This document shows, in pieces, positions 602-36,965 of a stretch of DNA of 64,000 nucleotides. How positions within the stretch are numbered: the first letter of the stretch is position 1; each line of letters starts with the position of its first letter. The position numbers and the translations under genes are program-made. Source of the DNA: Pecten maximus (taxonomy: Eukaryota); contig NC_047022.1 in the NCBI RefSeq assembly GCF_902652985.1, positions 1,302,001-1,366,000 on the forward strand, written 5' to 3'. The notes under the pieces are model-generated. The model was not told the DNA's origin. It made no database searches and saw nothing but the letters and a program-made list of their open reading frames with translations.

Positions 602-2330
602 TCACATGATCCACCTAAGTGGTATTAAATTTAGCCATTGTGAAAAAGTGTCTAAGATATGCTTAGGGTATACAGGTGTTGGGAAAACCACACTGTAGTA
701 CTGTAGTAGCTTGACTTTTCCACCCCTACACACTGTATATAGCGCATCCTCCCTGTCTACACCGACAGCATATACCTCGTAGATATCTGTGTGTAAGACC
801 CTGAGGAACTCGCCATGCCCACTGAGGAGTAGGACACGGTTGTTATTATAGTCCCCTATGATAATGTTACCTGCATTGTCAACACCACATCCCGGGGCTC
901 AAATGGTTTATCTCCCGACTGTGATGTTGGTTGATAAGTATCAGGGACTTCACCATCATATACAAACAGTTCCTTGAAATGTGTGTCCATGACAACAAGC
1001 ATGTGTTGATTTCCGTCACAACAAACACTTTCATCGTTCAAGACAATCATTGCAAGGTTGTGGGTTAGCCGACACTCTGACACTCTGTATGGTAAACTAA
1101 CTAATGGCTCGCCAGCCGCTGTAGCCGAGGTTGTAGGTAACAATTCACCTTTCGTGGTGAATTTTGAGATTTGTCCGGCCATCCCCACAATAACATGGTT
1201 ACTGGCTGTAATACAGATACACTCTGGTTTCTCATAGGTACTGAATCTGTGTTCCAGCCGTCCTGACACGAGCTCTGAGATATTGTGTTCCCAGTCGCAG
1301 GCCCACAGCGTGTTGGTTATGGGTGACAGACTGATGTCCCAGATCCTAGTATCGTGTTTGACCTCCTGTATTGTATTCCCTTCCCTGTCAAAGAGAGTTA
1401 GTGAATCACGGTAGTTGTCACATGTCCACAATTGGTCATCCATATTTGGGCATGCAGATGAAATTTGACATCGAGACGTCCACTCCCGAAACTGTTTCGT
1501 CTTTGTCAAAAGGGTGTATATAGGACCAAATTCTTCCTTTCTTTTCTTTGATCGTTGTTGAACAGGCGGCGTCTGAAACTTCTGCGAAGGCTGCTGTGAT
1601 GTAGTAGACAGTCGTTCTCCAGATGACCCAACTAACCGATCATTCCCATGTGGCACTCGACCCTGACTCTGAGCCGAGATGGTGACTTCTCCTAAGGCCT
1701 TTTTCAGGCATTCTCCGGGAGTTCTGTTCGGTGTGAATGTAGCCATACCAAGGGTAGGTTGTAGGGGAATATTGACAGGGTAATGGATATCATATCCAAC
1801 GTTAAAGTGAGAACCACGCTGAAGTGCTTTCTTACATTCCTGTACTTTTTGTTCAAGATCTGTCCTGTACGTTTCCAGGTCCCGTTTGTAGGTTTGTAGT
1901 AACTTGGCATTGTCCTCCTCCATTTGTTTATAGAGAGACAAAGTCTGGGTCGACAGCAGGTCAAGTTCCTCTTTTAATTTGTTATTCTGGGTCTTTACCT
2001 TTTGTGACAACTTGTCAAATATACTAACGTTTTCCTTTAAATGGTCATCGGTTGAGGCAATATATTGGTTTATTTGTACTAGGTCAACATTCTCTGTTTT
2101 GTCTATAAAGTCTTGTATATCTTGTTTCTTCTGAGAAGCCAGTTCATCAAGCAAACACAATGTATGGTGTTTATGTGATATTTCTGAGCATTTAATGCAA
2201 ATAAGTTCCTTGCATTATGTACAGTAAAGTTCTATTTGTTTCCCTTTATGGTAGAAACAAAAGGTTCGATCTGTCATGCGGGCAGGAATTGAAACTTTTT
2301 TGTCTGTCAGAGCCTCGGTTTCATTTCCAT
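602..2330 (-). pseudogene. Terminal exon of a TRIM-like gene (B-box, coiled coil, NHL/beta-propeller), disrupted
   Basis: Acceptor tttcag precedes 2330 (phase 1). Translation DGNETEALTDKKVSIPARMTDRTFCFYHKGKQIELYCT*CKELICIKCSEISHKHHTLCLL is a B-box with an in-frame TAA at 2215-2217. Coiled coil and NHL-like blades follow (ORF 856-2160). A 1-nt frameshift near 881 separates PRDVV from DNAGNIIIGDYNNNRVLLLSGHGEFLR...KLLQYY, with a stop at 602-604. Confidence 0.85.
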
Positions 2331-2519
2331 CTGAAATCAGTTAAAAGATGAAAATATGTCTTATTGGCATTCGATACTGAAAACAATGAGTTTGGTAAAG
2401 AAGTAAACTGGAATTATCAGGAACGTTTTAAACGCTTATAACTTCATTTCGATCTCAATGAAAACTTTCATAGTGTACAGTTAATTATTAAAGTCTTATT
2501 AACAGTACACCATTGTTAG

Positions 2520-3090
2520 AATTCAGAAAATGATAAGTATATCGGACGGCTGTGGACCAAAGGAGTAATATAAACGGTAATTATCCATATAACACTGGAT
2601 CCTTGTAAAGATTTGTCCGCCGGATACGAATTATTTAAAAAGTTGATATGGGGCAAAAAAGTAATTCTTATAGTGTGAATAATGTAAAATGTCAAATTGT
2701 CGAGGCAATCCGCCCCTGCACCAAGACACAAAAACACATGATACAAACAGTACTAGAAAATACAATAGCATACAGTAATAGTAGTAGTTTTGGTAGAGCA
2801 GTTGAAATAACAACCATGAACCCTTTAGCTGGCTCGGGCCGAAGGTGGTGGCTAGCTTGACATGTACAAAGTTATGTACCATGATGGAACGCTATGTGAC
2901 CAACGGCCAAGGCATTTGAAAATATCCAGCGCATGGAAAAGCCGAAGTGTTGAGAGATGTTTCGTCCCAAAATGATTACATATGGATGCAGCGTATAGCA
3001 ACTGGTGGACGACATTACATAAATACTTGATGGATTATCGTTCATGAAATGGTAATGGATATAAACATATATTGGGTGTAAAGTCTAGAG
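2520..3090 (-). mobile_element. Penelope-like element terminal (pLTR) fragment
   Basis: Visibly similar, in the same orientation, to 52560-52960, which adjoins Penelope-type coding sequence. Contains a degenerate hammerhead-like motif near 2690-2730. Boundaries approximate. Confidence 0.55.
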
Positions 3091-3489
3091 AACTCTCAAA
3101 ATATCATGTAAAGAATCAAATTGGCCAATGTCCCTTCGAACAGAGTTATACATTTTTTAGGACTGTACTCTCTGGATAGATATATACGTGTAAGACAATC
3201 AAGTCTAGCTTTAGTGATGATAGCAATTAAAATTGTTGAGCAATTTCGAGTCCGACTTTGAGAGATTGAAGCCCTGCTGGCACAAGAGTAAAAAAAGGAA
3301 CAGAAACAAAACTTGGCGGTGGCTAGCGTGAAATGTGCAAAGACAAAAGGGTTTATGAATACATTTTAATTTATAAGCCATTTTTAACAGATTCGACCAG
3401 AAGAAAAGACACAAAGCCTTCATTACAGTGATGAACGCTCAACTTCAGGTCGCAAGTGAGGCAGTGTCAAGACAGACATTTGGAATGTC

Positions 3490-3685
3490 GACATAATAAC
3501 GAAACCGCGATTAGAAACCCCAAACCAACAGAGAATACCGACATAATAACGAAACCGTAATTCTAACTCAAAATAATACAGGGAATACCGACAAAATAAC
3601 GAAACAGTTATTCGAACTAAAAAAACAAACAGAATACCGACATAATAACGAAACCATAATTCTAACTCAAAAATAACAGAGAATA
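3490..3685. repeat. About 50-bp degenerate tandem repeat, ~4 copies
   Basis: Recurring GAATACCGACATAATAACGAAACC motif. Confidence 0.7.
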
Positions 3686-3694
3686 TATAACGTT

Positions 3695-4790
3695 CTTTTG
3701 TGCCAATGGTATATTTCATTCATTCCAGGTTTGTCATTTACCTGTAAACGACAAAAATAAAAATAAAATAAAAAGAATAAAACGACACACCAGAAAATGG
3801 TTTATCTGATGTCAGTTGGTTCGGTTACCACAAAAAATAGTCAAACGACAGAACGTTATATGTAAAAAAAAATAATATGATTGTTGTATGTGCCGCATGA
3901 AAAGCAACAGGTGCTGCAAACAGAGCAACAGGTGCCTCAACGGCAAATACAAGACTTTGTCTTCAAGCATTCATATATTTGAACATCTGTCTAGCTAATG
4001 TTGAGGTTTGTAATTTATCAACAGGATTGTTGAACAGTGCAAGGTAATGGCAGTTCATTGTCTGAAAAGGATCTTTGCTAAAATTACAGATTCTTTTTGA
4101 TTGCTATATTACTGATAGCTTTCTATGATGACTTCCTCCTGTGAATAGCTCATTGATAAACTCATTATTACGAGGATCTTTTGAAGCTGAAGACAAGATA
4201 TCATCTTTCACGATCTGGTTTCTCACGATAATGTCTAGAAATGAGTCCTGGTCTATATATATATATGGATTCCTTGTATGAACTCTACTTCTGGTGAAAC
4301 AGTTGTCTTGATAACATCACACAGAGGCTGACATCTTTTATAAAGCCATATGATTCACTGTGGTGGAAGTGAATTATATCTGTGCAGTGTTGATGGAGCA
4401 TCTTGACTAAAAACGTTTTCCCACAGTCGGCCCGGAAATGTTTGTCGTAAATGAATGCTTGAAGACAAAGTCTTGTATATTCCATCGAGACACCTGTTGC
4501 TCTTTATGCGGCACCTGCGGAAACACTAGCGACTTATTTTGGTACTTGTTCTCATGGTGTGGACTGTTTGATTTAATACATACATTTCATCTGTGTTTTA
4601 TTTTGATCGATGCTTATCCTTCCATCTGTGCCGCAAAAAGTGATTTACCAAGAGCATTTTTTGTGGTAACTGAACCAACTGATAAACCATTTTCTTTTGT
4701 GTCGTTTTATTTTTTCAATTTATTTTTTATCTGTCTTGTTTACGGGTAAATGATAAATCTGGAATGAATGAAACATTGGCACAAAAAAAA
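3695..4790. repeat. Fold-back structure with long imperfect inverted arms
   Basis: 3695-3840 is the reverse complement of ~4655-4790, and 3900-3975 of ~4450-4520. Confidence 0.7.
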
Positions 4791-5544
4791 TTGGCCTATA
4801 ATAGTTGTGATGTAAATGAATCAGCTGTACAATTTTAGGGGAACGTTACAGCTAAACGTAAAGTGAGGTAGGCTCACTTCCTACCTTACAGGGGAATTCG
4901 ATCCTTTGATCTGACCCTCTTGGATGCTCTTGAGGAGAGCGTATTATATAGGGATATATGAACGTTTGTCTGTCTTGTTGTTTTCGGCTGATTGAATTAC
5001 CGTTGATCATGATAAGAAGGGACCTTTCTAAACATTACCTGACGCTATTCATAAGTATTTAAATACAATAAGTTTTTGCCCACTTGATAATTCCTTTTAA
5101 ACTGTTGTACAGAGGATATAGATACCTATAATCACTGTCAAACTGCCTTGTCACCAAACTCTGAACGCCACCATAAACTGTCTGCCAGCATATCTGACCC
5201 GCCACCATAAACTGCTTCCGCCATATCTGGACCTGCCACCATATCTGGACCTGACCTGTCATGACCGTGATCATGACCCCTTGACCTATGACCCTTGACC
5301 TAACTCAATAAACTGTCACCATACATACACCCTTGCTGCTGATAACGAAATCGTAATAATAACTCAAAAAAGCTAAAACATAAATCCATCCATGTGATTT
5401 CATTGTGCCGGATAAAATATTGATAATATTCATATAACTCATATTTGTCTCTAAATACATTTGTGGTAATGCATAGACAAAAATGCAGATCATATGATGA
5501 AGAGATGAACTTTTGTTCACCATTTGAAATAAAATAATATTTAC

Positions 5545-5844
5545 CGGATTGTAGAGACAGGACCGTCATGTTACTCAAACCAGTTCCGTTACAGTTGGTA
5601 GCTGTACACAGGTACTGTCCGTGATCGCCGATGGTTGTTTTACGGATAATTAATGTTGGAGAAAGAATTGAGCCTCCAAAGTACTGTTTGTTGTCAAATT
5701 CTATTGGAATGTCTTCATCGTCTTCTTTTTTAAACCACTGAATTGATGTAACTTCTGGTGAGCTGATGACGTAGGTTTGGATGATTGCCGTTTTCCCGAC
5801 GGGAACAGTGAACTGGCTATGACTGATGTTTACATATGGAGAAC
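5545..5844 (-). CDS. Exon encoding Ig domain 2 (I-set-like); largely missed by the ORF track
   Basis: GSPYVNISHSQFTVPVGKTAIIQTYV...IQWFK...YFGGSILSPTLIIRKTTIGDHGQYLCTATN. 300 nt, phase 1-1. Confidence 0.85.
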
Positions 5845-8800
5845 CTAATAAAGGACATATCCATTAAATATACATTTAAAGTAAGGTGAAACATATCATC
5901 ATACACTGCCATTCACACAATTTTGATTTGTTGAAACATTGTAAGTGTATCAGAAACTTTAAATGTTCAATTTCTAGGGGGCATATTATCATAATAATCA
6001 ACAAATACATTACACTCTAAGAACTATCTCTTCAAAAAAAAATGTTTTTCTGTGAAAATACATGTAGATGTCAATTTATCAAAAATTCTAAAAATAACAT
6101 TATATAGGTAAAATGTTGCATTTTAAGGATGTGCAGACCATCAATAACCGGATCAACTATTTGAAGAATAAAAAGGCAAAACCAAAGGAAGTTAACAGAC
6201 AAAAATATAATACATGTACATACTATTTGAATGACATCTTTTGAATTTCAAAACATTTTCATTGTGTATACAGATAGAAAATTACGGATGGTACTGTTTA
6301 TATAAACACGATGTAAATGTAACCTGGACCAGTTCATGAATCTGATGATAATAATATGGCTACTGGTATTAAACAACAATTTTCCCTCATTAAAACTGTG
6401 TCTTCGCAATAGATAATAAGAATACGTGTACCATGCACTGTATTGAAGGAATGATATTTGAAACAAAAAATGTACATGCACAGCTGTAAAATTGCAATTA
6501 ACCGATGGGAAACTTACTAGCTTTAACTGCATGCTGTGTTGTTATCTGTAAATTATCTTGTTCTAACACTGTGTGTGATTCGTCCATTAATTGTATTGGA
6601 TTCGATTGTAAGGATACACATGTCATGTTTGGTAATGAGAAACACATTTGAAACGTTAAAAGTGCTGTAAACGGTGATTTACCAGTAGGAAAATATGCCA
6701 GAAAATGTATTGGATACTTAGTGTTCACAAGCTGTACAGGTGTACTTACCATCCTCTGGTGTAGTTTCTGGTGTTATCTCGAAACTGTCCTTGACTATTT
6801 GTAACACTGTCTGTGATTCGTCAGTTAGCTGTATGGTGCCACCTTCCAATAGATAATGTTTAAACTCTTCAGCGAGATGTAGAGAAGATGGCTCTGATGC
6901 ACTCCTAGCAGCAGTGATATCTAAACATACTTGGATGCATTCTGAAAAAAAATGTTGCCACGTAAACAAATAGGTGATGAAAACACCAAAATATGAAATC
7001 AACTTATGCTGGGTTCTTTTCTTTTCGTGTTTAATTCCGTTCATATGCATGTTCTAATTAAGCGTACATTAATACATACTTTTTTTCAATTTAGCTTTCC
7101 GCAAATGTCGTGACTGACGTGTTACTCTTGTAAATGTGTCAGAAATATCCTTTTGTGACGCTTGTCTTGTAATGTCAATGTCATTGTTCACATTGAAAAA
7201 CATCCGGCTACCTTGGTCGGTTTGGCAAACAGTGGCTTCAAACAAACAATTTAATACATTACCAAATATATAAAATTTCAAATAAAGCAATACAACTTGC
7301 TTTCAATGAAAGAATTCAAATGTTGAGCATATAACGACCAGATTAACAGATTGACTATCCCAGAATGTAGGTACTATATTTTTGTCTGTGTGTATACATT
7401 TTATTATATCTGAAATGATCACTGTTAACACATAGCGTACCTCTTTTACCGCCAGCAGGCTGTGAATGATCTTCTGTTTCACTGAAATGAAAAATACATT
7501 GTACTCATCAAATATATATTAAACTTGATGTCCCATAACGGAAATTGCAAACAAAGATGGAAGGAAGAACTGAATATTTACTCCTGTTTTAAAACATTTA
7601 AAAAAAAAAAAATAGTTTAAGCTATAATTCTTTTCTGAAATAAAAACAAAATTTGATTTCTTCATTCAAACATGAATCATAAATAAACTCGAATTTAATA
7701 TATGATTTATACTCGTCAATTCGAATTTATCCCCGTCAATTCTTACATCAATAAATTCTAATTTAAAATAGCATCCCCCGTCAATTCTTACATCAATAAA
7801 CTCGAATTTAATACATCATTCACTCCCCCCCCCCCCCCCGACCCCCCACCACCACCCCTGTCAATCTCTACATAACATGCATACATTGTTTGATTTAGAT
7901 CTTTCAGCAAGAAGGAAACTAAACAAACAAAATTAGCCGAATAAAATGTAAAACCAGAAAAAGACAAAGTAGAAAAATGAGTTAAATTATACCTGGTTTA
8001 GGTTGTTTCAAAATTGCTTGCAATACATAAGTTCAGACTAGGTGAAATGCAATGAACATTATCATGACATGAAATTTCGTCATTTATTCATTTATTTTTA
8101 AATCAAATCAGTCGCCATAATTATAAAATTGCTGTTTGTCAACTGCATGGGCCTCTTACTGCGTTAAGGACGTACACCGGATGAGCTTCAAAGAGACAGG
8201 AATACGATTTGTTATAAATTACCCCTAGCTGTGAATGATACTAATACATATTGTCATATAGTGACTGTAATGTCAAGATATAGAGCAATGTCACTGGGGA
8301 CATTTCTTTCAATTAATTAAGTAAAATGTCAGCAAAATTTGAACAAAATCAACAAAATCTAAATTTCAGCCAATCAGAATCACTTAGTGCTAATCAACGA
8401 AATAATGCTCGTATTGTCAAAATGAACCTAAAATCAAATATCAAAACTTTCAGTCAATTAGAAACGACTTCAAACTAGTTGCCATTTTACTTAACCAGCT
8501 ACAAGAAATCAAATAAATGTTGTAAAATCTTATCCACAGATCAAATCTGAATGTATTCTGACCAATCTGTATCTGTACATATCATGGCAATTATTTCATC
8601 AGCACGAAAACGGCTAGGTGCCCTGGACTTGAGGCTTTTAGGTTACGTCGACTCACATCCTGCATTTGTGTCTTTTTCGTCATTCGCCTCATACTACTCA
8701 TAACAAGAAAACGCAGGCGCTCCTAAATTTGAGGTATATGATATATCAAGTGAAAAGGGGGAGGGAGGGGTACAATGTGCACACCTGTAATTATATTTAC

Positions 8801-10900
8801 TCATTATGGCGTGTACATTCTGTCTGTCTGTCTATGGTTGGGAAGTAAATAAGGACTGTGTGAGAATATATTAGAGCGGCATTATTGCCATATCACAAAT
8901 AAATACATCTACAAAAATGTACATGTACCAGCAGAGCAGAAATTCTGATGAGAATTTCAAAAAAATGAGGGAGCGTAGAGTACCTTTTGGAGCGTTTCCT
9001 TCCCCGAGACAATTCATTGGAATCTGATCCACTAGCGGGGGCCTGTTCACTGTTTTCGTTTTCTTTATTTGATTCTGAAATAATAATTGTCCAATACCAT
9101 TATATATATATTGATCCAAATTTAGAATTCAAATATATCTTCGGTGGTTAAAATTTTATCAGATGTTTTAATTTGATGTTGATTAAAACAATCGCATCAA
9201 ATGGATCGCAATCCGGCTTACAAATGGCAAAAATAGTTTTCTATATATCCGCAATTAATATCTAAAAAGGCTGAAATTATATAAAGACGTTTTTCTCTAT
9301 CACTTTGTTACATTTTTTGCCATGGTTTTTGTTCATGTTATCGTAACCATAACTTTATAAAGTTAAGGAAATGAGTAGTGTTGTAATGTAGTGTTATGAT
9401 AATACAACGCTAATCAAAAATACCTGTTTCTGTATGAATACTCTGCTGGGTCCCTTCAAATTCTGGTTCCGACGGTTGGCTGTAAGTACAATTAAAATAT
9501 AAAGAACGATATCAAATATGTCGTCTTTTATTGTATGATATTACGTGTTTCGCTACAAAATGTATACTATCTAATTCTTGATACTGTATACTCCATTCTT
9601 TAATTACGATGTTTTTAGATCATCTTTATTTATTTGACAATATAACTGAAAAAAAAATGTTACCTGTCAATGGGATCATCGCTTTGCCTCGTCATGTTGA
9701 CCGGAACAACAAAAAGAAATAAATGGAATAATTATTAATAAAATTTATCTGTGTAATATCAGAAATTAACAATTTAACAAACACTGAATGAGAAAGAATT
9801 CATGTTTTCAGGTAGACACGAATGGAAAGAGAAAATAGTCTAAAGATAATTCTCAGTTTGTGATGATAATATATTAACAATGCATTTGTCGCAAAATCGG
9901 CATATACATGTACATAATCTATTAAGACCGAATTCAGTACTTACAATAACTTGTCCATAAATAAAAGATTATACGTATAATGTGCGCGTGTGTGTATTTG
10001 ATACTTACGCACTTTCAGATAGACGATGTCACCATCCACTTCTTTTCGACGGGTTTTTGCCGTGCATTGGTATTTGCCTTCATCCATTGGTTGGTTCGGG
10101 TCTCTTATCACAAGTGTAGGCGTTTTCTCACTATAATAGTACTTCCGATTGTCTATAGGGACTTTTTTCCATGATTGCGTACATTTGTCCTTTCTCCATT
10201 CGATGTATTCTGGTACAGGATGTACTGTACAGTCTAAGAAAGAAGCTTCGGATCCTTCCTTCGTAGTATATACGGGCCTATCCATGGAAATAACTATTTC
10301 TTCTGCAGCAAAAGAGTCATGCATATTGTTGATACAACTTTATCATTTGTTTACTAACTATTGAAACATTTTTGAAATTTTCAAACCTTCTAGAATATTT
10401 TCTATGTTTTAGCTATTGGTCATGCAGGACTAACTGAATTGTATCACCACTAAATGCCAAATTAATGCAATAAAGAAAAGAACATGGTAAGATCAACACA
10501 TTATTTATAAATACACCAATTAAGTGATATACACACACAACCATGTAAACCTCATCAAACCAAATAACGTAAAATGCTACCTACCTTTATCTTCCTTTAG
10601 TTTGAGTATTGTGTTCCGTTCTTTTGTATATCTGTTGACGATTAAACACAGTGACGGTTTTATTCGCTTCAGTTTTGGTATTAATTTTTCATAATTTCCA
10701 TAAGAAATAAATATTTTGTCCATCAGGCAAATAAACAGCTGTTGTACTGTTTCTATTTTTTCCTTATCAGCCGGAGTAAGTGGATCGTCCTCGAGAAGAT
10801 GTTTGAGTTCATCCAGCTCCGGACCTGTCATATTGTCACTCAACTCCAAAACCATGTTGTTATGAATACTAATAACCTCGGTAGGCATGTTTGTAGCCAT
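5545..10900 (-). CDS. DED-like + Ig + linker + Ig multi-exon cassette, copy 1 (exon 3 acceptor deleted)
   Basis: Phase-consistent GT-AG exons: 10900-10585 (ATG, DED-like), 10302-10009 (Ig), remnant ~9697-9664, 9479-9424, 9074-8984, 7481-7441, 7235-7080, 6941-6750, 6664-6518, 5844-5545 (Ig). The last exon ends in phase 1, matching the TRIM-like exon at 2330. Confidence 0.75.
10009..10302 (-). CDS. Exon encoding Ig domain 1 (I-set-like)
   Basis: C...IEWRK...PTLVI...DEGKYQC motif. 294 nt, phase 1-1. Confidence 0.85.
10585..10900 (-). CDS. Exon encoding a death effector domain (DED)-like fold
   Basis: LELSDNMTGPELDELKHLL...LFICLMDKIFISYGNYEKLIPKLKRIKPSL matches the DED helix pattern. Acceptor at 10920/10919, an in-frame stop precedes the ATG, donor G|gtaggt. 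Confidence 0.75.
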
Positions 10901-11272
10901 GCTGGAGGTGGCTTATACTCTGAAAACAAACAAAATATTTCGTCTTTTATTGTTCTTACCTGGTATATTGTATATTACCTTATCTATAAAACATTCGCCA
11001 TTCTGTCTACAGAAAATAGTTGGCTTAATACCGCTATTTGTGTACCTACATTTGTAAGTTATTTTATATAGCTGCGAGTACAAAGTCATAGGGCAATATA
11101 ATGAATTTCGAAAATCACAAATTTAAATCAAAAGAAACACCTTGACACTGTGCTGATCTTGACATATATTTACAATGTTTATCTTAGGTTGAAAACTGTG
11201 CATTAATATCAGTTCAGGAAGTTTGAAAAAAAAAAATATATCGAATGAACTATATTGATCAAAGTGCCAGAT

Positions 11273-11465
11273 CCGTTATATTTTTGTATTATCCACACCG
11301 TTATATTTTTGTATTATCCACACCGTTATATTTTTGTATTATCCACACCGTTATATTTTTGTATTATCCACACCGTTATATTTTTGTATTATCCACACCG
11401 TTATATTTTTGTATTATCCACACCGTTATATTTTTGTATTATCCACACCGTTATATTTTTGTATT
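11273..11465. repeat. 25-bp minisatellite, ~7.7 perfect copies
   Basis: Unit CCGTTATATTTTTGTATTATCCACA. Only ~1.7 copies at the paired locus (~45455-45500). Confidence 0.95.
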
Positions 11466-12290
11466 GCTATCGGAATATCCATAGAGTTAAATCCCGACAA
11501 CATCAAAGGAGATGAAGACAGAACCAATCACAAATATTCCACATCATTTAAGTATAAAAAAATCTGTGTTCCCAGTCAGTTTAGAAATATGAATAAAAAA
11601 ACGCGTATTCGACGGATGAAGGCCATTATTATTATCCCATGAAGTGGCTTTCCAAAGCCGCAATGAAAACGCATCTCGACTAGAGTATATATAAGTTAGG
11701 TCATCTTGTCAACTAACTCATTGAAAAACTTAGTTCAGATCAAGTAGGTAATTTATTTTTCTATATTCTATTTATCTTAAACAGATATTCAATCACCTAA
11801 AAACATGACTCAAACAATGAAATAACAAACAAATACTTCGTGGAATAAGAACGTGTGTTTCTGTGACGATGCGGCGCATGATTAACTAGCATTAGTCTGT
11901 CCATCATATCGGCTAACATATCAATAACTCGAGTCACTGTCAATAACAGAAAGTTATGCTGATTATATGTAAATCAGCACGTGCCATATCTGGATTGTTC
12001 TGAAGGACGGTTTACGTGGCAAGAATAATATTGAGTTTACTAATTATACAGCATTAAACCATTTTGAAAGTTTGAAAAAATATCTTGGACACTATAGGCG
12101 ATTCATGGAATATGTCCAGAAGCCAATGCAATATTGTTATGACCTCATGAAGGTTGAAAAAAGTATTTATGATGAGAACGCAGTATCTGTTGTAGGACTC
12201 TACTTCAGTAAATCTTATAAGTTTACATTGTCATATCCATCTGTCACGATTAGTAATTACAATTTGATGCAGTTGTATTGTAAATTTTGC

Positions 12291-12535
12291 AAACAAGCAT
12301 TCTGAGAGTATTGTTAAAGCAATATATGACCCCTACTGCCCCCGCTTAAAATATAAGTGACCCCTGACCTTGACCCAAAAAATCTTGAAACATTGAAGTT
12401 ACATCATACCTTCAATCACCAACATATCTCGAAGCATGACTGAAAGAAGTGTGGAAACCTGAGTTGACGGACGAACGGACGGACGGACTGGGAGGAAACT
12501 TATACTCCTTTCGGTTTTACCGGTAGGGGACTAAT
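12291..12535 (+). mobile_element. Short Helentron/HINE-like non-autonomous element (paired copy ~44390-44640)
   Basis: AAACAAG start, TGACC motifs, (GGAC)n microsatellite and a terminal hairpin-like end GGGGACTAA. Confidence 0.5.
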
Positions 12536-13399
12536 AAACACTCAGATTAAATCAAACTATCTGAAACACGTTTGATATCAGGTTGAATTTAACGAACGTT
12601 TTGATTCTGAGGTCTAAAAAGGCTCCGAATAATAATAACATTGTGGCGGATCTTTCATAAGTAGTAAACAAAGTTTTTTTTTCTACAATCATGTAAATAG
12701 GAACTTGCCTTCAATGCATGTTGATATTTCTTGACATTCTACCGACATAGACCGCGTGTGAACGCTAGCTACCGCGAGTGCTTTCAGGGAAGTGTCTTTA
12801 GCCGTGTCATCTGAACACACAGTTTAGCCAAGTCTCCTTTTCATTTGTATACAAAAATTAAAAATGATTAAATATGGGAATGGGGCTAACCAGAATTGCC
12901 AGGATAAAACATATTATATAAAGGAAATGTGTATCCTGGAGACTGGTTTACTGCATCAATCAGTTTTAACGGGGATTTTAATAATGATTATCTAATTCCT
13001 AAGTTCTCAACAATGGATATAGTGAAAGGTTTGAAGTTGTGTGCAAGTGTGATATTGTTATTTGCATGCATATCACGTTTGTGTTCATACTCAGATCGAT
13101 CCATAGTCTATAACCCAAAACGGAACTTACCAAATTTATATAGTGATCGACACTACAGAGTAAATGTAAATATCTTACCTTATAGGAGGTGTTTTATATC
13201 TACTACCAAAGCCTGCTGGAAAATGCTGTCATCTCTTCAAGAATACAATTCACTTCACATGTTGATTCATCATGAAATCTCCAGTCATCATTTACACGGT
13301 GTGGAATCCTTTAGAAAATTCAACTACGTGTTCCTCATGTTGAAAGGCAAAGGCATCGTTTGGTAATGTCATGCATCTGCAATAACGAAGTATGTTATT

Positions 13400-13912
13400 G
13401 TAGCATAACACCAAATTATCGTAGCATGTCTCAAAATTATCATAACATGTCTCCACATTATCATAACATGTCTCCAAATTATCATAACATGTCTCATAAT
13501 TATTCTTACATGTGTCGCAATTATTCTAACATGTCTCTTAATTAGTATAACATGTCTCGAAATTATCAGAACAGGTCTCCGAATTAGTATAAGATGTGTC
13601 CAAATTAACTTAACATGTCTCAAAATTATAATAACATATCTCCAAACTATCATAACAGGTCTCCAAATTAGTATACCATGTCTCCAAATTATCATTTTAT
13701 ATCTCCAACTTATTATAACATGTCTCCACATCATCATAACATGTCTCCACATTATCATAACATGTCTCCAAATTATTATAACATGTCTCCAAATCATTAT
13801 AACATGTCTCCAAATATCATAACATGTCTCCAAATTATCATAACATGTCTCCAAATTATAAATATGTCCCCAAATTATTATAACATGTCGCAAAATTATC
13901 ATAACATGTCTT
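13400..13912. repeat. 21-bp tandem repeat array (paired array ~43015-43525)
   Basis: Unit ACATGTCTCCAAATTATCATA. It explains the spurious repetitive ORFs here. Confidence 0.95.
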
Positions 13913-14959
13913 TATATTATCTGTTAGCCGGGATATAGACGTATATATGGAGAAAAATATTCAACGGCAAAGCCCCAAACCGCTCTTTTTAACTATTTTT
14001 CTCGATGGAAGGGGATTCAAAAATATTAAATTTGTTTGCTAAACTATTTAAAAGCTAAACTTATACCCGTGCATGTGGGGTTGATGAACTGCACACGAAG
14101 CTTCATCCTCAAATTATAGCTAGGCCTATAGGCCTACTATTGGTGATTAATTTTCATGTAAATTTGGAATTACCGCGGTATCAAATTCTAATGATTATAA
14201 TTTAGTATTTCAAATGAAAACCACAAAATATGTAGAACATAATATTTGAGTAGTTTTCCCGTTAATAACCATCGATTTTTACACAAAAATATCCTTCAAA
14301 TGTCGACGTTCAATGACGAAATGTTGTGAGAGATGTAGGCTAATGTTCTATTTAGAAAAGTTTAACCGTTTGACCTCTGACCCAAGATGGCGGCCACCAC
14401 TTTCACTTCTAATTTTTAATACTGTTAACAGTTACATATAACTTGCATCATTTTAAAGGGGATAAATCAACCCTTTTACTGCTGGTGTCCGAACAAAAAT
14501 CCATTCAGTAATAACGGAGATATGTTCTAATATATACAAAATATTATGAAAAATCTCTTCACGCCTGAGTGCATTCCGGGTTTTGTCCTCACCCCGGCGT
14601 TATATGCAAAACGTCTATAAAATGCCCGTACGCATGTATGCCAGTATACTTGTACACATGAACAGATGACGTCGTTCGAATGTGTATGTGTGAAAACTTT
14701 CGGTTTCAAAAGCTCACAATGTGTTAGTTTGTGTGACTGTTTTTATACTTACCAGGAAGTCCGCGTTCATCCGAGTCGACTGTGGCCTACTCATACTCCC
14801 TTTATACACATGGAAGGTTTATATCTCAAGCCTTATAAGCCAACATTGAAATGGTGTCAAAGCAAAATATATGTCACTAGAACAAAATATTGCACTATAG
14901 ATTTATGTTTAAAATCTTCACATATCTGCAACAGCTAAGCCAAGCCAATATAACAGAAA

Positions 14960-17041
14960 AACAAGAGGCCTAATGGGCCTGTATCGCTCACCTGGCTCTA
15001 CAGCAACTTTGAAGTTGATTGAGGTCATTTCTACAGATACTATGCTGATTATCATAGTAAGCTAGGTTTATTCATATCAATAAATTTTCTAGTCCTTCAT
15101 TCCAGCATTTTATTGGCCTAATATCTGGTCTAGGAGGCTCTTGGCTATCGCAAAATTATTGTTTACAGATTTAAGCTGGGACCTTAAATGTAGGTCAAGG
15201 GTCATTAATTTGAACAAACTTTGTAGCCCTTCACCCAAGCATGCTACAGGCCCAATATCAAGTCCCTGGGCCTTTTGGTTATTAAGAAGAAGTCATTTGA
15301 AGAATATAGCCTATTTGACCAATATGACCTTGAATGAAGGTCAACGTCATTTATTTGAACAAACTTTGTAGCCCTTCACCCAAGCATGCTACAGGTCCAA
15401 TATCAAGTCCCTGGGCCTCTTGGTTATTGAGAAGAAGTCGTTTGAAGATTATAGCCTATTTGACCCATGTGACCTTTAATGAAGGTCAAGGTCATTTATT
15501 TGAACAAACTTTGTAGCCCTTCACCCAAGCATGCTACAGACCCAATACCAAGTCCCTGGGTCTCTTGGTTATTGAGAAGAAGTTGTTTGAAGAATATAGC
15601 CTATTGGACCCATGTGACCTTGAATGAAGATCAAAGTCATTTATTTGAATAAAGTTTGTAGCCCTTTACGCTAGCATGCTACAGGCCCAATATCAAGTCC
15701 CTTGGCCTCTTGGTTATTGAGAAGAAGTTGTTTGAAGAGTATAGCCTATTTGACCCATGTGACCTTGAATGAAGGTTAACGTCATTTATTTGAACAAAAC
15801 TTTGTAGCCCTTCACCCCAGCATGCTACAGGTCCAATATCAAGTCCCTGGGCCTCTTGGTTATTGAGAAGTCGTTTGAAGATTATAGCCTATTTGACCCA
15901 TGTGACCTTTAATGAAGGTCAAGGTCATTTATTTGAACAAACTTTGTAGCCCTTCACCCAAGCATGCTACAGGACCAATATCAAGTACCTGGGCCTCTTG
16001 GTTATTGTGAAGAAGTCGTTTGAAGATTATAGCCTATTTGACCAATGTGACCTTGAATGAAGGTCGACGTCATTTATTTGAACAAACTTTGTAGCCCTTC
16101 ACCCCAGCATGCTACAGGCCCAATATCAAGTCCCTGGGCCTCTTGGTTATTGAGAAGAAGTCGTTTGAAGATTATAGCCTATTTGACCAATGTGACCTTG
16201 AATGAAGGTCAAGGTCATTTATTTGAACAAACTTTGTAGCCCCTCACCCCAGCATGCTACAGGCCCAATATCAAGTCCATGGGCCTCTTGGTTATTGAGA
16301 AGAAGTTGTTTGAAGATTATAGCCTATTCGACCCATGTGACCTTTAATGAAGGTCAAGGTTATTTATTTGAACAAACTTTGTAGCCCCTCACCCCAGCAT
16401 GCTACAGGTCCAATATCAAGTCCCTGGGCCTCTTGGTTATTGAGAAGAAGTCGTTTGAAGATTATAGCCTATTTGACACATGTGACCTTGAATGAAGGTC
16501 AAAATTACTTTTATTTGAACAAACTTTGTAGCCCTTCACCCAAGCATGCTACAGGCATAATATGAAGTTCCTAGGCCTCTTGGTTATTGAGAAGAAGTCG
16601 TTTGAAGATTATAACCTATTTGACCAGTGTGACCTTGAATGAAGGTCAAGGTCATTTATTTGAACAAACTTGGTACTCCTTCACCCCAGCATGCTACAGG
16701 CCCAATATCAAGTCCCTGGGCCTCTTGGTTATTGAGAAGAAGTCGTTTGAAGATTATAGCCTATTTGACCCATGTGACCTTGAATGAAGGTCAAGGTCAA
16801 TTATTTGAACAAACTTGGAAGCCCTTCACCCCAGTATGCTACAGGCCCAATATGAAGTTCCTGGGCCTCTTGGTTATTGAGAAGAAGTTGTTTAAATGAA
16901 AAAGTTGACGCCGGACGGCCGGACGGCCGGACGGACGGCCGGACAGACGGCCGGACAGACGGCCGGACGGCCGGACAGACGGACGGACGACGGACGCCGC
17001 ACCATGGCATAAGCTCACTTGCCCTTCGGGCAGGTGAGCTA
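14960..17041 (+). mobile_element. Helentron-associated (HINE/Pearl-like) element carrying ~12 copies of a 145-bp satellite; left arm only
   Basis: Starts AACAAGAGGCC...GCTCACCTG. 145-bp units span ~15190-16895, followed by a (GGAC)n/(GGCC) microsatellite and a terminal hairpin AGCTCACTTGCCC-TTC-GGGCAGGTGAGCT. The empty site is a T-run at ~41971-41977. Confidence 0.85.
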
Positions 17042-17494
17042 ACTAGTCCTCATAAGTCCATACGTATACAACCACCCGGAAGTATAATTGTAACTGTGCA
17101 CTGGGGTGCGTTCGAATGAAAAAGGTTTGTATTGTCATTACTGGCCGACAGATACATGTAGATACAGGACCTGTCAGCGTATATCCGCGACTGTACATGT
17201 CTATGTATATACAGGAAGTCCCCAACTATACTACGGCGCGTTGGAATTAAAACGCTGTTGTTGTTGTTGTTATGCTTGCAAATATACTGTAGGGCTCAAA
17301 CTGTCTATCGTCAAGGAAACTTTAATCATCAAGATTTTGATAAAGAAATGGTCACTTCAGTTTAAAACTAACCATAGATAATTGGTTATTATGAATGACT
17401 TGTGTAATCAAGGACAATAATTGTACAAATAATTAATGATAATATACTTGTTATAATATCAATCGTTGAATAATGTACACTACGAAAAACATAG

Positions 17495-17710
17495 CCAGTA
17501 CGGTCAGGGGTGTAAATAAAAGTTGTAGTATATCATTAATACAGGTACTGATGTTGACCGGTACAGTCAGGGATGTAAATCAAAGTTGTAGTATATCATT
17601 AATACAGGTACTGATGTTGACCGGTACAGTCAGGGATGTAAATAAAAGTTGTAGTATATCATTAATACAGGTACTGGTGTTGACTGGCACGGTCAGGGAT
17701 GTAAATCAAT
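17495..17710. repeat. 60-bp tandem repeat, ~3.5 copies (paired ~41300-41510)
   Basis: Unit GTCAGGGATGTAAATCAAAGTTGTAGTATATCATTAATACAGGTACTGATGTTGACCGGTACA-like. Confidence 0.9.
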
Positions 17711-17927
17711 ATTTGAATACGTCGTGTTTCTAAGAAGAGTGCAGCTGCTGATCAGTTTCCCGTGGTGCAAGTTATCAAAAAGTAACTTAAAGTTTGGTTA
17801 CCTCAATCTGTTGCCATGCGCTAGCCGTTCCCCTTTTAATGCACCATAATGTAGAAAAAGGTGTCGTATTGTTTCTCCTTTAAAAGTGCAAGGGAAATAA
17901 TAGATGATAAATAATAATAATAAAATG

Positions 17928-18378
17928 TATTTATTAAATTTTTACCAGTGAAATATCAAAAATTATTCATTTTATAAAAGTGATATTTTTCACTAGTGAC
18001 AAATATCATATTTTTCACTAGTGAAAAATATCACTTTTGCTGATTTGACCAATCAAATCAATGATTAGAAAATACCAAAATAATTTACCAATCCGAAAGC
18101 CCGACATATATGTCAGCACCTGGACAGGGGAAACTACTTTTTTGTTTACAAATTATCGCTGTAGACCTAGTTAGCATACGGGGTAGGGTTTTCGTTGATA
18201 AAAAATGTAATAAACAGAATATCTAACAGTGTCTTCAGTAATACCAAATATATTTCACTCGTGTGGCTAATATATTGATATTTTTCACTCGTGCTGCGCA
18301 CTCGTGAAAAATATCAAAATATTAGCCCCACTCGTGAAATATATTTGGTATTACTGAAGACACTGTTAGATATCCTCT
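17928..18378. mobile_element. About 450-bp non-autonomous element with a long terminal palindrome; left arm only
   Basis: Palindrome ~18219-18373 (ATATCTAACAGTGTCTTCAGTAATACC...GGTATTACTGAAGACACTGTTAGATAT). Absent at the paired site (~41015-41020). Confidence 0.75.
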
Positions 18379-19255
18379 ATATCTTTTTTTCTGTATCTAG
18401 TAATACTCATAAAGCATATATATCTCTATGTGTATGAGGGAAACATTTCCTCTGGACTAAATCATCTCTTTTCATGCTCTATAGCTAACGTCCATAATGC
18501 ACCAACTACATGTGCAAGAAAAGCAAGTATTTTCTCCAAGTAGTATATGATTTTTCAAAATCCCCCGCCGAATATCCAGATGACACTTTAAGAAATATTT
18601 TTGCTTGCCAAATAAAATCATTTGTTATGCGAAGTACTAAATTATGACAAATAGCTTCAATGTCAATAACACACAAATCACAAAGAATGCAGCTATCAAA
18701 CTGTAATCACATCTTCACATAGTGGTGTACCACACTTCAAAACGTATATCTAGCCTTCAGGGCACATTAAATTTGTTCCCGAATCCCTTGACTATTGCTC
18801 TCTATCATTGATTACTTTTCATAATTCTAATCACGAAGCAAATTAATCGTAGCCATTGACACTATGGCTGTCCTGCTGTAAAGATAACATATATATTAGT
18901 TACTCGATATGTTAAATGTTAAGAGTAAACTAATGACTCGAAATTCGAGTGGTAATTTAATTGAGTTATCTCTCAATTCTAAACTGTCTTATTTGCCAGT
19001 GCAAGATTGTTTTACCTGTCAGGACACCTGGCTTGCTAACCTTTAATGTATGTCAGATAAGGTTAAGTCATCTTTACCTCTCCAGATTAAGGGGAGACAA
19101 CTTATTTCACGCCTATTTGTGTATGAGAATTGTTTATGTCATTTGTTATGTAAAAGTATTGCAATATATTATAGTAAATCCGGAAATTTGTACCCGGATT
19201 CCGTATCTGTTATTTAGTATGTACTCGACCGGAAGTGTAATAAAGTTGGGAAGCG

Positions 19256-21317
19256 GACAAGTCTGTGAAACCCGTAGCACACACACCAATACCAGTACCA
19301 GCGCCCATCCGTAGTCAGCTGAAGAATGAGTTAGATCACTTAGTGAAGTATGGAATCATAAAATCTGTGAACAAACCGACGAAGTGGGTCAACAGTGTTT
19401 GTCAGGAAGAAAAATGGCCGTGTAACAATATGTATCAATCCGTCAGATTTGGACAAGGCGATACTCCGAGAACACTTTCTCATGAACAGTATAGATGATA
19501 TTCTGACAAGGCTTGACGGAAGCAAATATTTTTCAACATTAGACGCGAATATGCGTTACTACCAAATCTAACAACATTTAACACTCCGTTTGGACGATAC
19601 AGATACCTGCGTATGCCAATGGGAACAAAGTGTTCCAGTGAAGTGTTCCAACGTGAAATGCTAAATCATTACGTTGATTTAGAAGGCACAGAAATCGTAG
19701 TTGATGACATCATGGTTCACGGAAAAACGTCGAAGGAACATAACGCAAGACTGAAGGCGGTTCTTGAGAAAGCTCGTCAGATAAACCTGAAACTGAACAA
19801 GTCAAAATGTGTTAATGCCTGAAGTAAACTACGTGGGTCATACTTTGACAGGCGACGGAGTGAAACCTACAGAACAGAGAGTCAAAGCCATAGTGAACAT
19901 GAAAGAACCCAGTAACCACGGCGAGCTTGAAACTGTACTAGGCATGCTAGCATATGTGACAAAAGTCACGCCAAACCTTAGTGAGTTTAACGCTCCTTTC
20001 CGAGAGATTAAAAATACAAAGAATGGACATGGAGTGAATCAGTGAGGAAAGCTTTTCAAAATGTCAAGGACGCGCTAACCTCTACACCAGTCCTGGGGTA
20101 CTTTGGGGTACATAAGCCTGTACGTGTGACAGTTGACGCGTCGATGAAAGGTACGGGTGCGGCATTAATTGAGGATGGAGGCATTACAGCTTATGCGTCA
20201 CGGACACTGTCAGAAACGGAACAAAGATACGCCCAGATTGAGAAGGAAATGTTGGGTGTAGTATTTGGATGTGAACGCTTTCACAAGATGTTATATGGGA
20301 AATATGACGTAACTATAGAAACATATCACAAACCCATGGAACGAATTGTACAGAAGCCCATTCATACAGCTCCCATGAGGATCCAGATAATACTCTTAAA
20401 AATACAGCCATACGAATTCAAACTTGTCAATGTGACAGGAAAGGAAATAGGGCTAGCTGATTGTCTGAGCAGATGAAACTGGTGACAATGAGATGATGAT
20501 AATTACCGTAGACACGCTCTCACACATAAATCACAGAAGCATTCAGGAAGCAACGAGAGACGATGCCGAGTTACAGGAAGTGAAACCAGGTCACCAGCAA
20601 GCAAACGGTCTTGCTGAGAAAGCTTTTCAAAGTGTTAAGAATTTGATCAAGAAATCAGGAGATGACATATTTATGGCATTACTAGATCTAAGGAACACGC
20701 CTAGAGATGACATTGGATCTCCCATGCTTATGGGGCGTCGTGGGGAAACACGGTTGCCAATAACTGAAACACTTAGGAGACCAGAGCAGGGTAACATCAA
20801 GGCAAACGTAACATCAGAACTCATGGAGTACCGAAAAAAGTTAGAAACACTATTATAATAGAGGAACTAAGCCACGAGAGGATTTTGAGCGAGGTAATGC
20901 CCTTCGGGTAGATTCAGATAAAAGATGGGAACCAGCTGAACTAATAAACAAGACAGTATCCGCGGTCATACATTATAAAAGCAGGCGTTAAGGCACGCGA
21001 GTACCGTCGAAACAGTGATTTGTTGATGAAGACCAGGGACACACCATATCTCATCAAACCAGTCGAAAGGTCCAATCATGTGCCAACGATTCCTATCCAA
21101 AGACCGTCCAAGCTGTCCGTCCAGTGTGCGAAGACACGATAAACATGCAGATCAGTCAACGTCAGGTCTTGTCGCACGGTCCAGTGTTGTCGAACCTGAA
21201 ACCACAGGGGGTAAACCTGCAATCGCTCCAACAGTACCTCGAGATCTTGTATCGACCACGAAGTCAAAGTCTGGAACAACTGTACACAGACCAGGACATT
21301 TGAAAGATTTTGTGTAA
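19256..21317 (+). mobile_element. Decayed Ty3/Gypsy pol (RT, RNase H, integrase remnant), copy 1
   Basis: KYFSTLDA, MPMGTKCSSEVFQ, IVVDDIMVHG, VTVDAS, RYAQIEKEML, ANGLAEKA. Many frameshifts. About 575 bp of integrase deleted near 20586 relative to copy 2. Confidence 0.92.
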
Positions 21318-22623
21318 CTCTATTCGTGAACTGTATTTCTTGAGTACAGGGCACAATAATCCCTATATGTATCCAATGACCACATAGGTCTTCAATATGG
21401 GTGTAAATCACTCATAAGTTTAAAATGTTTGTTATGTTTAAATTTAAAAAAAACCCAAAAAACAACAACTGTATGTTCTTTGGTTATAACAAATAAAAAC
21501 AATGCTATTAGTGTTAAAATACTTTAATTATTCTAGTCATATATATATATTCTTATATGTTATTGGTAATGATCAATCATATATGATATGAATGTTACAT
21601 GTTCAATTGGACAATAGTCATCTACATTCTCAGTGTAAACTCAGAAGTCAAGATTATTCGGTTATAAAACAAAAATTATATTGATATTGGTTTAAATTGT
21701 TGACAATATAGTACTCTAGCAGAGTGTGCTGCAAAAAATCGACCCCCCATATGTGACCTGACTTGATGAGATATGATCAAATCTGACCTAACTAACGTAA
21801 GCACCCTTTCTACAACTATCCAAATGCCTTTGTACAAAATTGGCGGGAACTCTATGTCATTTTCTTGAAGAGATGTTTGTAGTTTAATACAGTTAACCAT
21901 TATTGTATTATGACAGCTTGTTTTACAGTATTTTATTTTTCACAAACACTATATCCATTTTTATTTTACCGTCGATTATTATAAAAGTTGAGAATAGTTA
22001 AAATATTTGTAAGTTTAAACGCTGGTATGATTACTCTAACCCATGAATTACCAAATTAAATACCTGACTTATCAAACATTATCTAAATGTTTTCAAAAGT
22101 TGTAAACGAGAGCATCAGAAAATGAATGACTTTTCACCCCTCGGCAAAGTTACTGTGAAGGATAAAAAAAGATAGAAACTTGTTTTACAAATGAATCAAA
22201 ATGACATATGTACTACTAGTCATATAATTACCACCGGTATTCCCATCAACGGTCATGACAAGTTTTACAGTTTCTCCGGTGCTGCCGATGTTGGATGATA
22301 AAACATCGTATATACAGAGAATACACCCGTGTAATTTTATATTTCACTTAGTTTATCAATACACAAACAGCTCAAACAAAATCCCTTCATATACACACAT
22401 TAATAAATTGTCATGTGTTTTTCATTATCTCGGGTTAACACTTCACACAGTTGTGTCGCGTGACTCCACTTGTAATTGAGGATATCTTGTTACACACTCG
22501 GTTGTACGATAAGGCACTTAATGCTCCCTCCAAATTTACATATCAGTCAAAACATGAAAGGGGCCCAAAACGGGGTAATTTATTTATACGGACATATTAA
22601 AAATCTTCTAGAGTTTCTGTTCT

Positions 22624-25600: not shown

Positions 25601-25747
25601 CAAGACAGAAAAAAGTATGTAGAGCAATACTTTGTCAACACAGGAGTGACACTCGATTGGCGAACCATCGGTAAGAATCCAGATCTGAGAGTTTTAGCAA
25701 AATTATGTTCAAACAGTTTTGGGGGGAAATTTGGGTTAAAAATTTAG
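22624..25747 (+). mobile_element. Decayed Polinton/Maverick-type protein-primed DNA polymerase B pseudogene, 3'-truncated
   Basis: ExoI FVFFDFEC, ExoII AHNMKGCD, DSLNFLPMKLAALPK, WFPHLFN, ExoIII YCRSDVDILR, GGRTN, motif A YVDFTSLYP, motif B-like AKLCSNSFGGKFG. Cys-rich N-terminal region and a QYGG motif. Multiple stops and frameshifts; no motif C. Confidence 0.9.
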
Positions 25748-36406: not shown

Positions 36407-36965
36407 TAGTATTTCCTGTACTGTTTTATAATGTTAGTATAATGTACCTTATTGGTAGGTAAGTGTTGTTTGAGGTAGTATTTCCTGTACTGTTTTATAA
36501 TGTTAGTATAATGTACCTTACTGGTAGGTAAATGTTGTTTGTGGTAGTATTTCCTGTACTGTTTTATAATGTTAGTATAATGTACCTTACTGGTAGGTAA
36601 GTGTTGTTTGTGGTAGTATTTCCTGTACTGATTTTTAATGTTAGTATAATGTACGTTACTGGGAGGTAAATGTTGTTTGTGGTAGTATTTCCTGTACTGT
36701 TTTATATTGTAAGTATAATATACCTTACTGGTAGGTAAGTGTTGTTTGTGGTAGTATTTCCTGTACTGTCTTATAATGTAAGTATAATGTACCTTACTGG
36801 TAGGTAAGTGTTGTTTGTGGTAGTATTTCCTGTACTGTTTTATAATGTTAGTATAATGTACCTTACTGGTATGTAAATGCTGTTTGTGATAGTATTTCCT
36901 GTACTGTTTTATAATGCTAGTATAATGTACCTTACTGGTAGGTAAGTGCTGTTTGTGGTAGTACG
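36407..36965. repeat. 69-bp satellite, ~8 copies, plus an inverted unit at ~37025-37110
   Basis: Unit GTAGTATTTCCTGTACTGTTTTATAATGTTAGTATAATGTACCTTACTGGTAGGTAAGTGTTGTTTGTG. Preceded by degenerate TATGTGTGTATGGGTATACTGA repeats from ~36200. Confidence 0.95.

Follow-up and report, generated by a model that had tools for sequence, protein, structure and literature searches.

The 64,000-nucleotide window analysed here (Pecten maximus, contig NC_047022.1, positions 1,302,001 to 1,366,000) carries on its minus strand a real and transcribed gene of at least ten coding exons, spanning positions 10900 to 602. The encoded order is DED, immunoglobulin (Ig) domain, linker, domain X, Ig domain, B-box, coiled coil and six-bladed NHL propeller. 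This locus (copy A) is an expressed, allele-variable gene of conserved scallop architecture. Its X is a conserved, folded domain of about 110 residues which standard annotation misses. The reading that we lean towards, with a little more than even confidence, is that the gene belongs to a scallop set of cytosolic, modular sensor-adaptors of immune type, in which clustering of the DEDs would recruit DED partners and X would act as a switch.

Gene structure and domain architecture

Exon 10 of the gene is present in 20 of the 24 listed sequencing runs, which come from 8 studies. Four runs were compared in detail: X11 (RNA on record), X8 (RNA by guess), X3, whose kind is unrecorded but which yields a spliced contig and is counted as RNA-type, and X1 (DNA by guess). 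The exons, all on the minus strand, are given below by ascending position.

Exon 1 (10585-10900, ATG at 10900) encodes the DED, recognised by its splice signals and by Pfam (PF01335, 41.2 bits against a cut-off of 35.9, E 2e-10). In the structural model of the intact homolog P0140, six helices occupy residues 7-99 at a predicted local distance difference test score (pLDDT) of 89-97; the death fold that the original prediction placed at the N-terminus is thus upheld. An acceptor ending at 10920 lies ahead of exon 1 and a donor upstream at 10959, which suggests a 5′ untranslated exon. Exon 2 (10009-10302, phase 1-1) encodes Ig1, an I-set domain with both cysteines kept (Ig_3 32.2 bits, I-set 29.5). 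Exon 3 is a remnant at 9664-9699, traced by alignment with the inverted duplicate of the gene (copy B) and by contig X3-15, which covers 9664-9715. Relative to copy B, about 115 bp including the acceptor are missing. Copy B keeps its exon 3 (47120-47192), whose phases exactly bridge Ig1 and exon 4, and the ancestral link between the two is thereby shown.

The linker is encoded by exon 4 (9424-9479, phases 2-1, RNA joints in X3 only), which is acidic, exon 5 (8984-9074), with a basic RGRKR motif resembling a nuclear localisation signal, and exon 6 (7441-7481). The joint 7481-8984 and those of exon 6 occur in all three RNA-type runs. Exon 7 (7080-7235), which the first gene model had omitted, was revealed by the RNA joints 6941-7080 (two of three runs) and 7235-7441 (all three), together with tblastn. 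It encodes the first half of X (beta1-alpha1-beta2), and exon 8 (6750-6941) the second (beta3-alpha2-beta4), with Lys-Cys at the beta2-beta3 turn. Of the acidic linkers proposed earlier, exon 4 is therefore one, and exons 7 and 8 are not. Exon 9 (5545-5844, phase 1-1, with RNA joints) encodes Ig2, an I-set domain (36.4 bits) with Thr for the first Cys; both Ig domains exceed the I-set and Ig_3 cut-offs of Pfam. Exon 10 (602-2330, TGA at 604-602) encodes the B-box, the coiled coil, the propeller and a short tail.

Every junction is GT-AG with compatible phases, save the one into exon 3, and all domain exons are phase 1-1. The chain of exons originally drawn from the DED to the propeller is therefore sound in its parts and phases and fails at the exon-3 junction, and none of the displayed RNA joints runs from Ig1 to a downstream exon. 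The expected lack of a transmembrane (TM) segment holds: the best 19-residue hydropathy is 0.77 in P0096, 1.24 in the window-encoded P0001 and 1.01 in P0097 (the last ~90 residues lie outside the test), and no hydrophobic segment occurs in P0096, P0097, P0098, P0140 or P0103 (best 0.77-1.41).

The same order is found in intact models of Argopecten irradians, P0140 (990 aa), which is collinear with the window exons, and P0103 (1248 aa), in which X occurs twice; intact relatives, which the original prediction proposed to look for, are thus present as gene models. The N-terminal 720 residues of P0103 retrieved 8 hits among 7999 scored. P0098, on the window contig, is a truncated Pecten paralog with the same domain order, and the Pecten protein P0011 joins a 52% identical DED directly to B-box, coiled coil and propeller, without Ig or X. 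The DED-Ig-X-Ig cassette is likewise found ahead of nSTAND3 and ankyrin repeats in P0114/P0141 of Mizuhopecten and P0143 of Pecten; there the Ig domains share their chain with a cytosolic NTPase. In 10 of 10 relatives examined the first Cys position of Ig2 holds T, S or A. The loss of this Cys, as first observed in the window, is shared by the relatives and thus is a family trait and not damage.

Transcripts and the three lesions

The joint 5545-2330, which connects the Ig2 exon to the B-box exon, occurs in all three RNA-type runs, each from a separate study. This splice agrees with the original exon order and rules out a B-box exon beginning at its own ATG at 2277; the start Met of the family aligns, by eye, further upstream. 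A spliced contig of X3, 2922 nt long, extends from 9715 to 298 and reaches past the exon-3 deletion point on its upstream side. Its exon 10 has one gap and 7 substitutions relative to the window, and its other listed pieces have none, for which reason the contig is taken as an allele of copy A.

Three lesions were reported for this copy, and all three are visible in the window. The first, a TAA inside the B-box (2215-2217), reads CAA (Gln, A>G at 2217) at all depth in X3, X11 and X8, and in the DNA-type run X1 CAA accounts for 15.7 of 28.4 depth, which suggests a real heterozygous stop. The second is a one-base frameshift in propeller blade 5 (880-881). All four runs carry an extra letter behind 880, and the homologs carry on in the second frame at 880-668. 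Either a mistake in the assembly or a rare allele would explain this; contigs drop variants and so do not decide between the two. The description of a damaged copy is therefore overstated, two of the three lesions being absent from the transcripts seen; the stop appears to be allelic, and the frameshift is found in none of the four runs. Differences of the DNA run at 5873-6597 were rejected as alleles, since 9 of 10 sites represent copy B reads on copy A. RefSeq breaks the locus into two short genes at lesions absent from the expressed alleles, which matters for annotation. Its model P0096 (LOC117332525) corresponds to exons 3-10, starting at an in-frame ATG inside the exon-3 remnant and ending at the TAA.

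The third lesion, the lost exon-3 acceptor, may uncouple DED-Ig1 from the remainder in the window allele. All eight cryptic AG acceptors of intron 2 lead to stops in silico, and read-through ends at codon 225. Skipping from Ig1 to exon 5, 7, 8 or 9 keeps the frame open. The window allele is likely to give mainly a product that starts at the exon-3 ATG and lacks the DED, or a full-length one only via the skip to exon 5.

Such a lesion raises the alternative of a split locus, in which a linker-X-Ig2-B-box-coiled coil-NHL protein without DED does the work, be it as a sensor, as a decoy or as a dominant negative, and the DED-Ig1 part of copy A is decaying or separately used. We regard this as unlikely, though it is the strongest of the alternatives. 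The X3 contig with its bases upstream of the deletion point, the stops behind every cryptic acceptor and the RefSeq start in exon 3 speak for it, as does the incompleteness of copy B and of P0098. Record 12 of X11 adds to this by reading from Ig1 into intron 2 with no difference from copy A (copy B differs at 7 sites of the exon part); however, its depth is only 3.9, and it may be pre-mRNA or DNA. Against a split, both the DED exon and the Ig1 exon have an open frame and intact splice sites, and the proportion of nonsynonymous differences (pN) in the DED, 0.020, is below the intron rate of 0.039. The in-frame skips from Ig1 count on the same side, and a DED-to-Ig1 splice in X11 fits the depth arithmetic (0.781 expected, 0.78 listed), which is its sole basis and could reflect either copy A or copy B. 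That X3 and X8 do not cover the exons of DED and Ig1 is not counted as proof of absence.

The DED and its relatives

A search with the DED found 38 proteins, of which 28 were scanned for domains; the ten unscanned are 115-225 aa long. Two relatives, P0105 (Pecten) and P0121, carry tandem DEDs, three (P0108, P0116 and P0132) combine the DED with two Death domains, and P0104, P0117 and P0126-P0128 carry it on nSTAND3-Ank proteins. Nineteen of the 20 relatives looked up are from Pectinidae, and no DEDD protein was identified among the 38 hits. That the nearest relatives sit on adaptor- or sensor-like proteins is counted for the sensor-adaptor reading. A complex prediction of the window DED with P0105 scored 0.00 twice, in runs which used no alignments, and is evidence neither way.

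A separate observation concerns P0112, in which a related DED stands at the C-terminus, after a Cys-rich N-terminal part and, by eye, a TM-like segment. It has no Pfam match and resembles a tumour necrosis factor (TNF) receptor having a DED in place of the death domain.

The original prediction suggested that the death fold could couple ligand sensing to caspase recruitment, and the corresponding alternative is that ligand-bound clusters directly recruit an initiator caspase of the caspase-8/10 type through DED-DED contacts. The domain is indeed a DED, and the only solved death folds that it matches are prodomains of caspase-8, at a non-significant E of 0.3-0.7. The FL hydrophobic motif and the RxDL motif are marks of DEDs of the FADD/caspase-8/cFLIP type. 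The window DED has His-Leu aligned at the FL position of caspase-8, His thus standing for Phe, and RIKPSL in helix 6 with no RxDL; caspase-8 DED2 itself shows QINKSL there. None of the 28 scanned relatives carries a caspase domain. Direct caspase recruitment is accordingly improbable, and the earlier claim is not sustained.

The B-box, coiled coil and propeller module

Pfam gives weak B-box and NHL matches flanking the two breaks of exon 10, and read-through translation places the eight Cys/His ligands of a B-box around the TAA. In P0140, P0103, P0098 and P0011 the zf-B_box match is above cut-off. The P0140 model, which stands in for the window protein, shows a coiled-coil helix at 555-661 with two return helices, and residues 731-987 form six blades (block pLDDT 83-97). 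The overall predicted template modelling score of 0.42 means that the domains are not docked. The propeller matches the NHL domains of TRIM2/TRIM3 at E 8e-17, and the nine best Foldseek matches all come from the NHL domains of TRIM2, TRIM3 and Thin (root-mean-square deviation 2.7-5.3).

Exon 10 has 96 relatives among 4787 candidates, most of them about 530 aa, and the named ones all come from four scallop genera. A search with the 452-aa exon-10 frame gave no longer homologs among 5499 candidates, a miss of the word index, as such proteins exist. The B-box motif is present in 82 of the 96 and begins within 30 residues of the N-terminus in 81 of these 82, so that the RING-less B-box/coiled coil/propeller module usually stands alone. 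None of the 96 shows a RING pattern before its B-box, and Pfam finds no RING in the window exons, P0140 or P0103. The protein is not an E3 ligase by itself. The idea that a death fold replaced the RING has to be abandoned, because the B-box/propeller family is RING-less throughout; judging from these sequences, the DED cassette is an addition ahead of an already RING-less module, made via its phase-1 acceptor. In a tree of 50 B-box/coiled coil/propeller rows, built by a quick search with 47 of the 94 named relatives (P0008 was left out, having no motif match), all DED-bearing rows fall in an open basal fork, which fits one or several fusions alike.

The b-c and d-a loops make up the top face of an NHL propeller; in Brat this face is electropositive and binds RNA (PMC4015489). 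Of the 30 propeller columns that vary most in the scallop family (47 sequences), 23 belong to the top face, which takes up 58 of the 255 columns, as set after the entropy list had been viewed, and mean variability is 1.87 bits in the top loops vs 0.89 in the bottom loops. By residue counts, a crude stand-in for surface potential, the window top face carries 4 K/R vs 9 D/E (46 of 59 columns), the family median is -3, only 3 of 49 rows reach +3, and the whole propeller is net -13. This acidic, hypervariable top face favours a protein ligand over RNA, and the pattern appears to fit diversified protein-ligand binding better than conserved RNA binding.

The alternative to which these charges are most relevant is an RNA-binding or nuclear regulator, whose NHL domain would bind RNA as in Brat or TRIM71 and whose DED, basic linker and TRADD-N-like part would work like DEDD/DEDD2. 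Its attraction lies in the propeller, which is closest to TRIM-NHL structures with the Brat-RNA and Lin41-RNA complexes among the matches, and in the RKR motif, present in 5 of 10 relatives including all four with a B-box tail. DEDD2 is described in PMC8195603 as a nucleolar DED and TRADD-N protein. The net acidic columns here contrast with the electropositive face reported for Brat, and a nuclear or RNA-binding role appears, if anything, slightly less credible than direct caspase recruitment.

Domain X

The model of X has the order beta-alpha-beta-beta-alpha-beta (strands 9-15, 44-50, 55-60 and 106-109, helices 24-38 and 71-83; pLDDT 83.5), a predicted ferredoxin fold similar to TRADD-N and SEA. 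This topology is that of the RRM-like TRADD-N superfamily, and structure comparison likewise places X among SEA and SEA-like ferredoxin folds. At the beta2-beta3 turn all nine sequences have Ser or Cys, preceded by Gly in four and by Lys in five, the window copy among the latter. According to PMC8195603, the TRADD-N superfamily has a tiny residue and Ser, sometimes Cys, at this turn. No TRADD-N chain is among the top 50 structural rows for X, an absence which is not an exclusion. A profile search against solved sequences gave TerB as its single match (E 0.7), which was dismissed as chance.

X is central in P0140, P0103, P0098, P0097, P0106 and P0114, lying behind the DED and between the two Ig domains, and the tails of X-bearing proteins are B-box/propeller, nSTAND3-Ank or repeats. 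In this middle position, next to a death-like domain of the constant region and ahead of changing C-termini, X resembles the TRADD-N superfamily. Three of nine relatives have Gly-Ser-Val (GSV) in X, and the window copy has none. X is apparently an uncatalogued domain.

In P0106 and P0142, two further P. maximus proteins of the window contig, a pair of hydrophobic stretches (hydropathy 1.2-1.8) separates Ig1 from X, the turn in X reads Gly-Ser-Val, and the RKR motif is missing. They are possibly membrane-anchored members of the family.

The inverted duplication and copy B

An inverted duplication of roughly 18 kb surrounds the 5′ part of the gene (3693-21554 vs 52385-37113), with 91-96% identity in most self-BLAST blocks. 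The two gene copies are transcribed away from each other, and each arm has its own deletions. Copy B (45820-49658, plus strand; RefSeq P0097, LOC117332837, 463 aa) encodes DED-Ig1-X-Ig2, lacks exons 4-5 and has no B-box exon within the window. RefSeq places its last exon near 51113, in a stretch missing from copy A. Its Ig2 is phase-compatible (1-1) with an ankyrin exon at 59352-59741, although RefSeq ends copy B elsewhere.

Between the copies, Ig1 (10009-10302 vs 46443-46736) has 16 amino-acid changes in 97 codons vs 13 in the five other shared exons (pN 0.076 vs 0.019, excess p 1.5e-4). The excess over introns has p 0.005-0.01, six exons having been tested in all. These figures do not demonstrate positive selection on Ig1, pN being 0.076 and its synonymous counterpart pS 0.058 (Fisher p 1.0). 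By eye, several of the changes lie in the C-C′ and F-G regions. The two copies differ at 17 sites over 10052-10244, and an X11 contig shows 13 differences from copy A in this stretch, which hints at further haplotypes.

Other features of the window

Exons of an ankyrin and Roc-like GTPase gene lie at 59352-63349 (plus strand; Ank_2 E 3e-9, with two Roc matches short of the cut-off at E 9e-5 and 8e-5). A stop ends the Roc frame at about 60424, and the stretch 60793-61651 recurs at 61934-62794. Between the arms of the inverted duplication, broken frames at 22949-25747 (plus) match DNA_pol_B_2 (E 1e-8 and 1e-9) and presumably derive from a decayed Polinton/Maverick-like element. Fragments of long terminal repeat (LTR) retroelements, with RT_RNaseH, rve integrase and a SCAN-domain gag-like frame, occur at 18890-21554 (plus), 37113-40373 (minus) and 53376-54284 (minus), the first two belonging to the inverted duplication.

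A duplicated open frame of 152 codons without Pfam match lies upstream of each gene copy (12908-13366, plus, and 43560-44018, minus), adjoining tandem repeats at 13395-13922 and 43003-43531. High-copy short repeats or tandem arrays occupy 3480-3840, 7600-7970, 11280-11460, 15068-16896, 36406-37112, 56172-56818 and 61151-62794. DNA depth is very high at 3160-3899 and 7600-7969, and a run of N lies at about 63670-63825.

Proposed mechanism

Phase-1 exon shuffling would have spliced a constant DED-Ig-linker-X-Ig cassette to a variable C-terminal sensor, in this gene the RING-less B-box/coiled coil/NHL module. The acidic, hypervariable top face of the propeller may bind a protein ligand, either derived from an invader or an altered self molecule. 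Clustering through coiled coil and B-box is established for other TRIMs, and the same parts would dimerise and cluster the scallop protein as in TRIM scaffolds. Clustered DEDs could then recruit scallop DED partners of the same subfamily (tandem-DED, DED-Death-Death or DED-STAND), which would relay to death or inflammatory signalling. X may be a TRADD-N-type switch as posited by Kaur et al. (PMC8195603). The ligand, clustering, partners and output of this scheme extend the observed anatomy, expression and variability by analogy with TRIM and death-fold precedent and with the model of PMC8195603.

Several points weigh against the sensor-adaptor reading. A whole DED-to-propeller transcript of copy A is in no contig, the listed contigs hold no joint from Ig1 to any downstream exon (27 joints are not displayed), and X3 leaves the exons of DED and Ig1 uncovered. 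The homologs are database gene models whose splicing is as annotated. Pfam matches X to TRADD-N or SEA in none of nine sequences, and its best solved structural matches are SEA-like, not TRADD-N. TRADD-N clusters are the best named Atlas hits and count in favour of a TRADD-N-type X, but their scores (0.87 and 0.77, the first with 175 shared features and a cluster that is 32% PF13820 and 19% PF20694) are leads only. The p-value for the top face is optimistic, and variability among paralogs may also reflect relaxed constraint on loops. The conserved motif resembling a nuclear localisation signal is left unexplained by a purely cytosolic role.

A bolder extension, held to be unlikely, is that scallops own a DED-wired intracellular immune network. 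In such a network, the cassette would be placed on TRIM-like propellers or STAND-ankyrin NTPases and served by private DED adaptors and the DED-tailed, TNF receptor-like membrane protein. X would be a cytosolic domain, so far unrecognised, that links TRADD-N and SEA, and members with Gly-Ser-Val may self-cleave, freeing the DED half. Were this true, lesions that segregate, among them the loss of the exon-3 acceptor, would switch the sensor between signalling and decoy forms.

Comparison with known systems

The TRIM-NHL proteins (TRIM2, TRIM3, TRIM71/LIN-41, Brat, Mei-P26 and Thin) share the B-box, the long coiled coil and the six-bladed NHL propeller. The scallop protein differs in having no RING, one B-box, no detected filamin domain, an acidic and hypervariable top face and an added N-terminal cassette of 500 residues; about 90 scallop relatives were found, vs few conserved genes. 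As Brat also lacks a RING, this absence alone does not exclude kinship with the TRIM-NHL proteins. DEDD and DEDD2 have a DED, a basic linker and a TRADD-N-type domain in the same order, to which the scallop protein adds two Ig domains and a TRIM-like tail.

SEA domains are extracellular and membrane-proximal, whereas X is part of a chain that appears to have neither signal nor TM segment and is 7-12% identical to the SEA-like domains of EpCAM/TROP-2 and mucins. Mucin-type SEA domains self-cleave at a Gly-Ser motif, and the window X has Lys-Cys, so the site is absent. For EpCAM/TROP-2, PMC6586460 describes SEA-like domains with proteolytic-switch behaviour.

The closest precedent is a set of proteins expanded in bivalves, in which DED and TRADD-N are combined with modules of the Ig, B-box, propeller, STAND and ankyrin kinds (Kaur et al. 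2021, PMC8195603). If X is TRADD-N, the parts are the same, with a constant DED region, variable C-terminal modules (propeller, STAND NTPase, ankyrin) and a lineage-specific expansion in a bivalve. The comparison is of parts and not of sequence homology. The Crassostrea gigas protein XP_011421835.1 has these parts in another order, Ig-DED-TRADD-N being the published arrangement vs DED-Ig-X-Ig in scallops, where an Ig domain and linker part the DED from X; Pfam does not match X to TRADD-N, and the C-terminal part of X is longer and SEA-like. LOC110458824, the carrier in Mizuhopecten, is missing from the PMC8195603 table, which has 11 rows for that genus, and "Pecten" was not found in the 12 supplement files searched (file 4 in part, file 13 excepted). 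Literature searches, which mostly do not cover subscription journals, found no publication on this scallop family. The general theme is already published; the domain order is new, and the unannotated domain X is apparently so. The gene adds a scallop branch to the DED/TRADD-N modular immune proteins of marine invertebrates, and the large RING-less B-box/NHL family, with variation on its ligand-binding face, is a candidate intracellular receptor repertoire in farmed shellfish.

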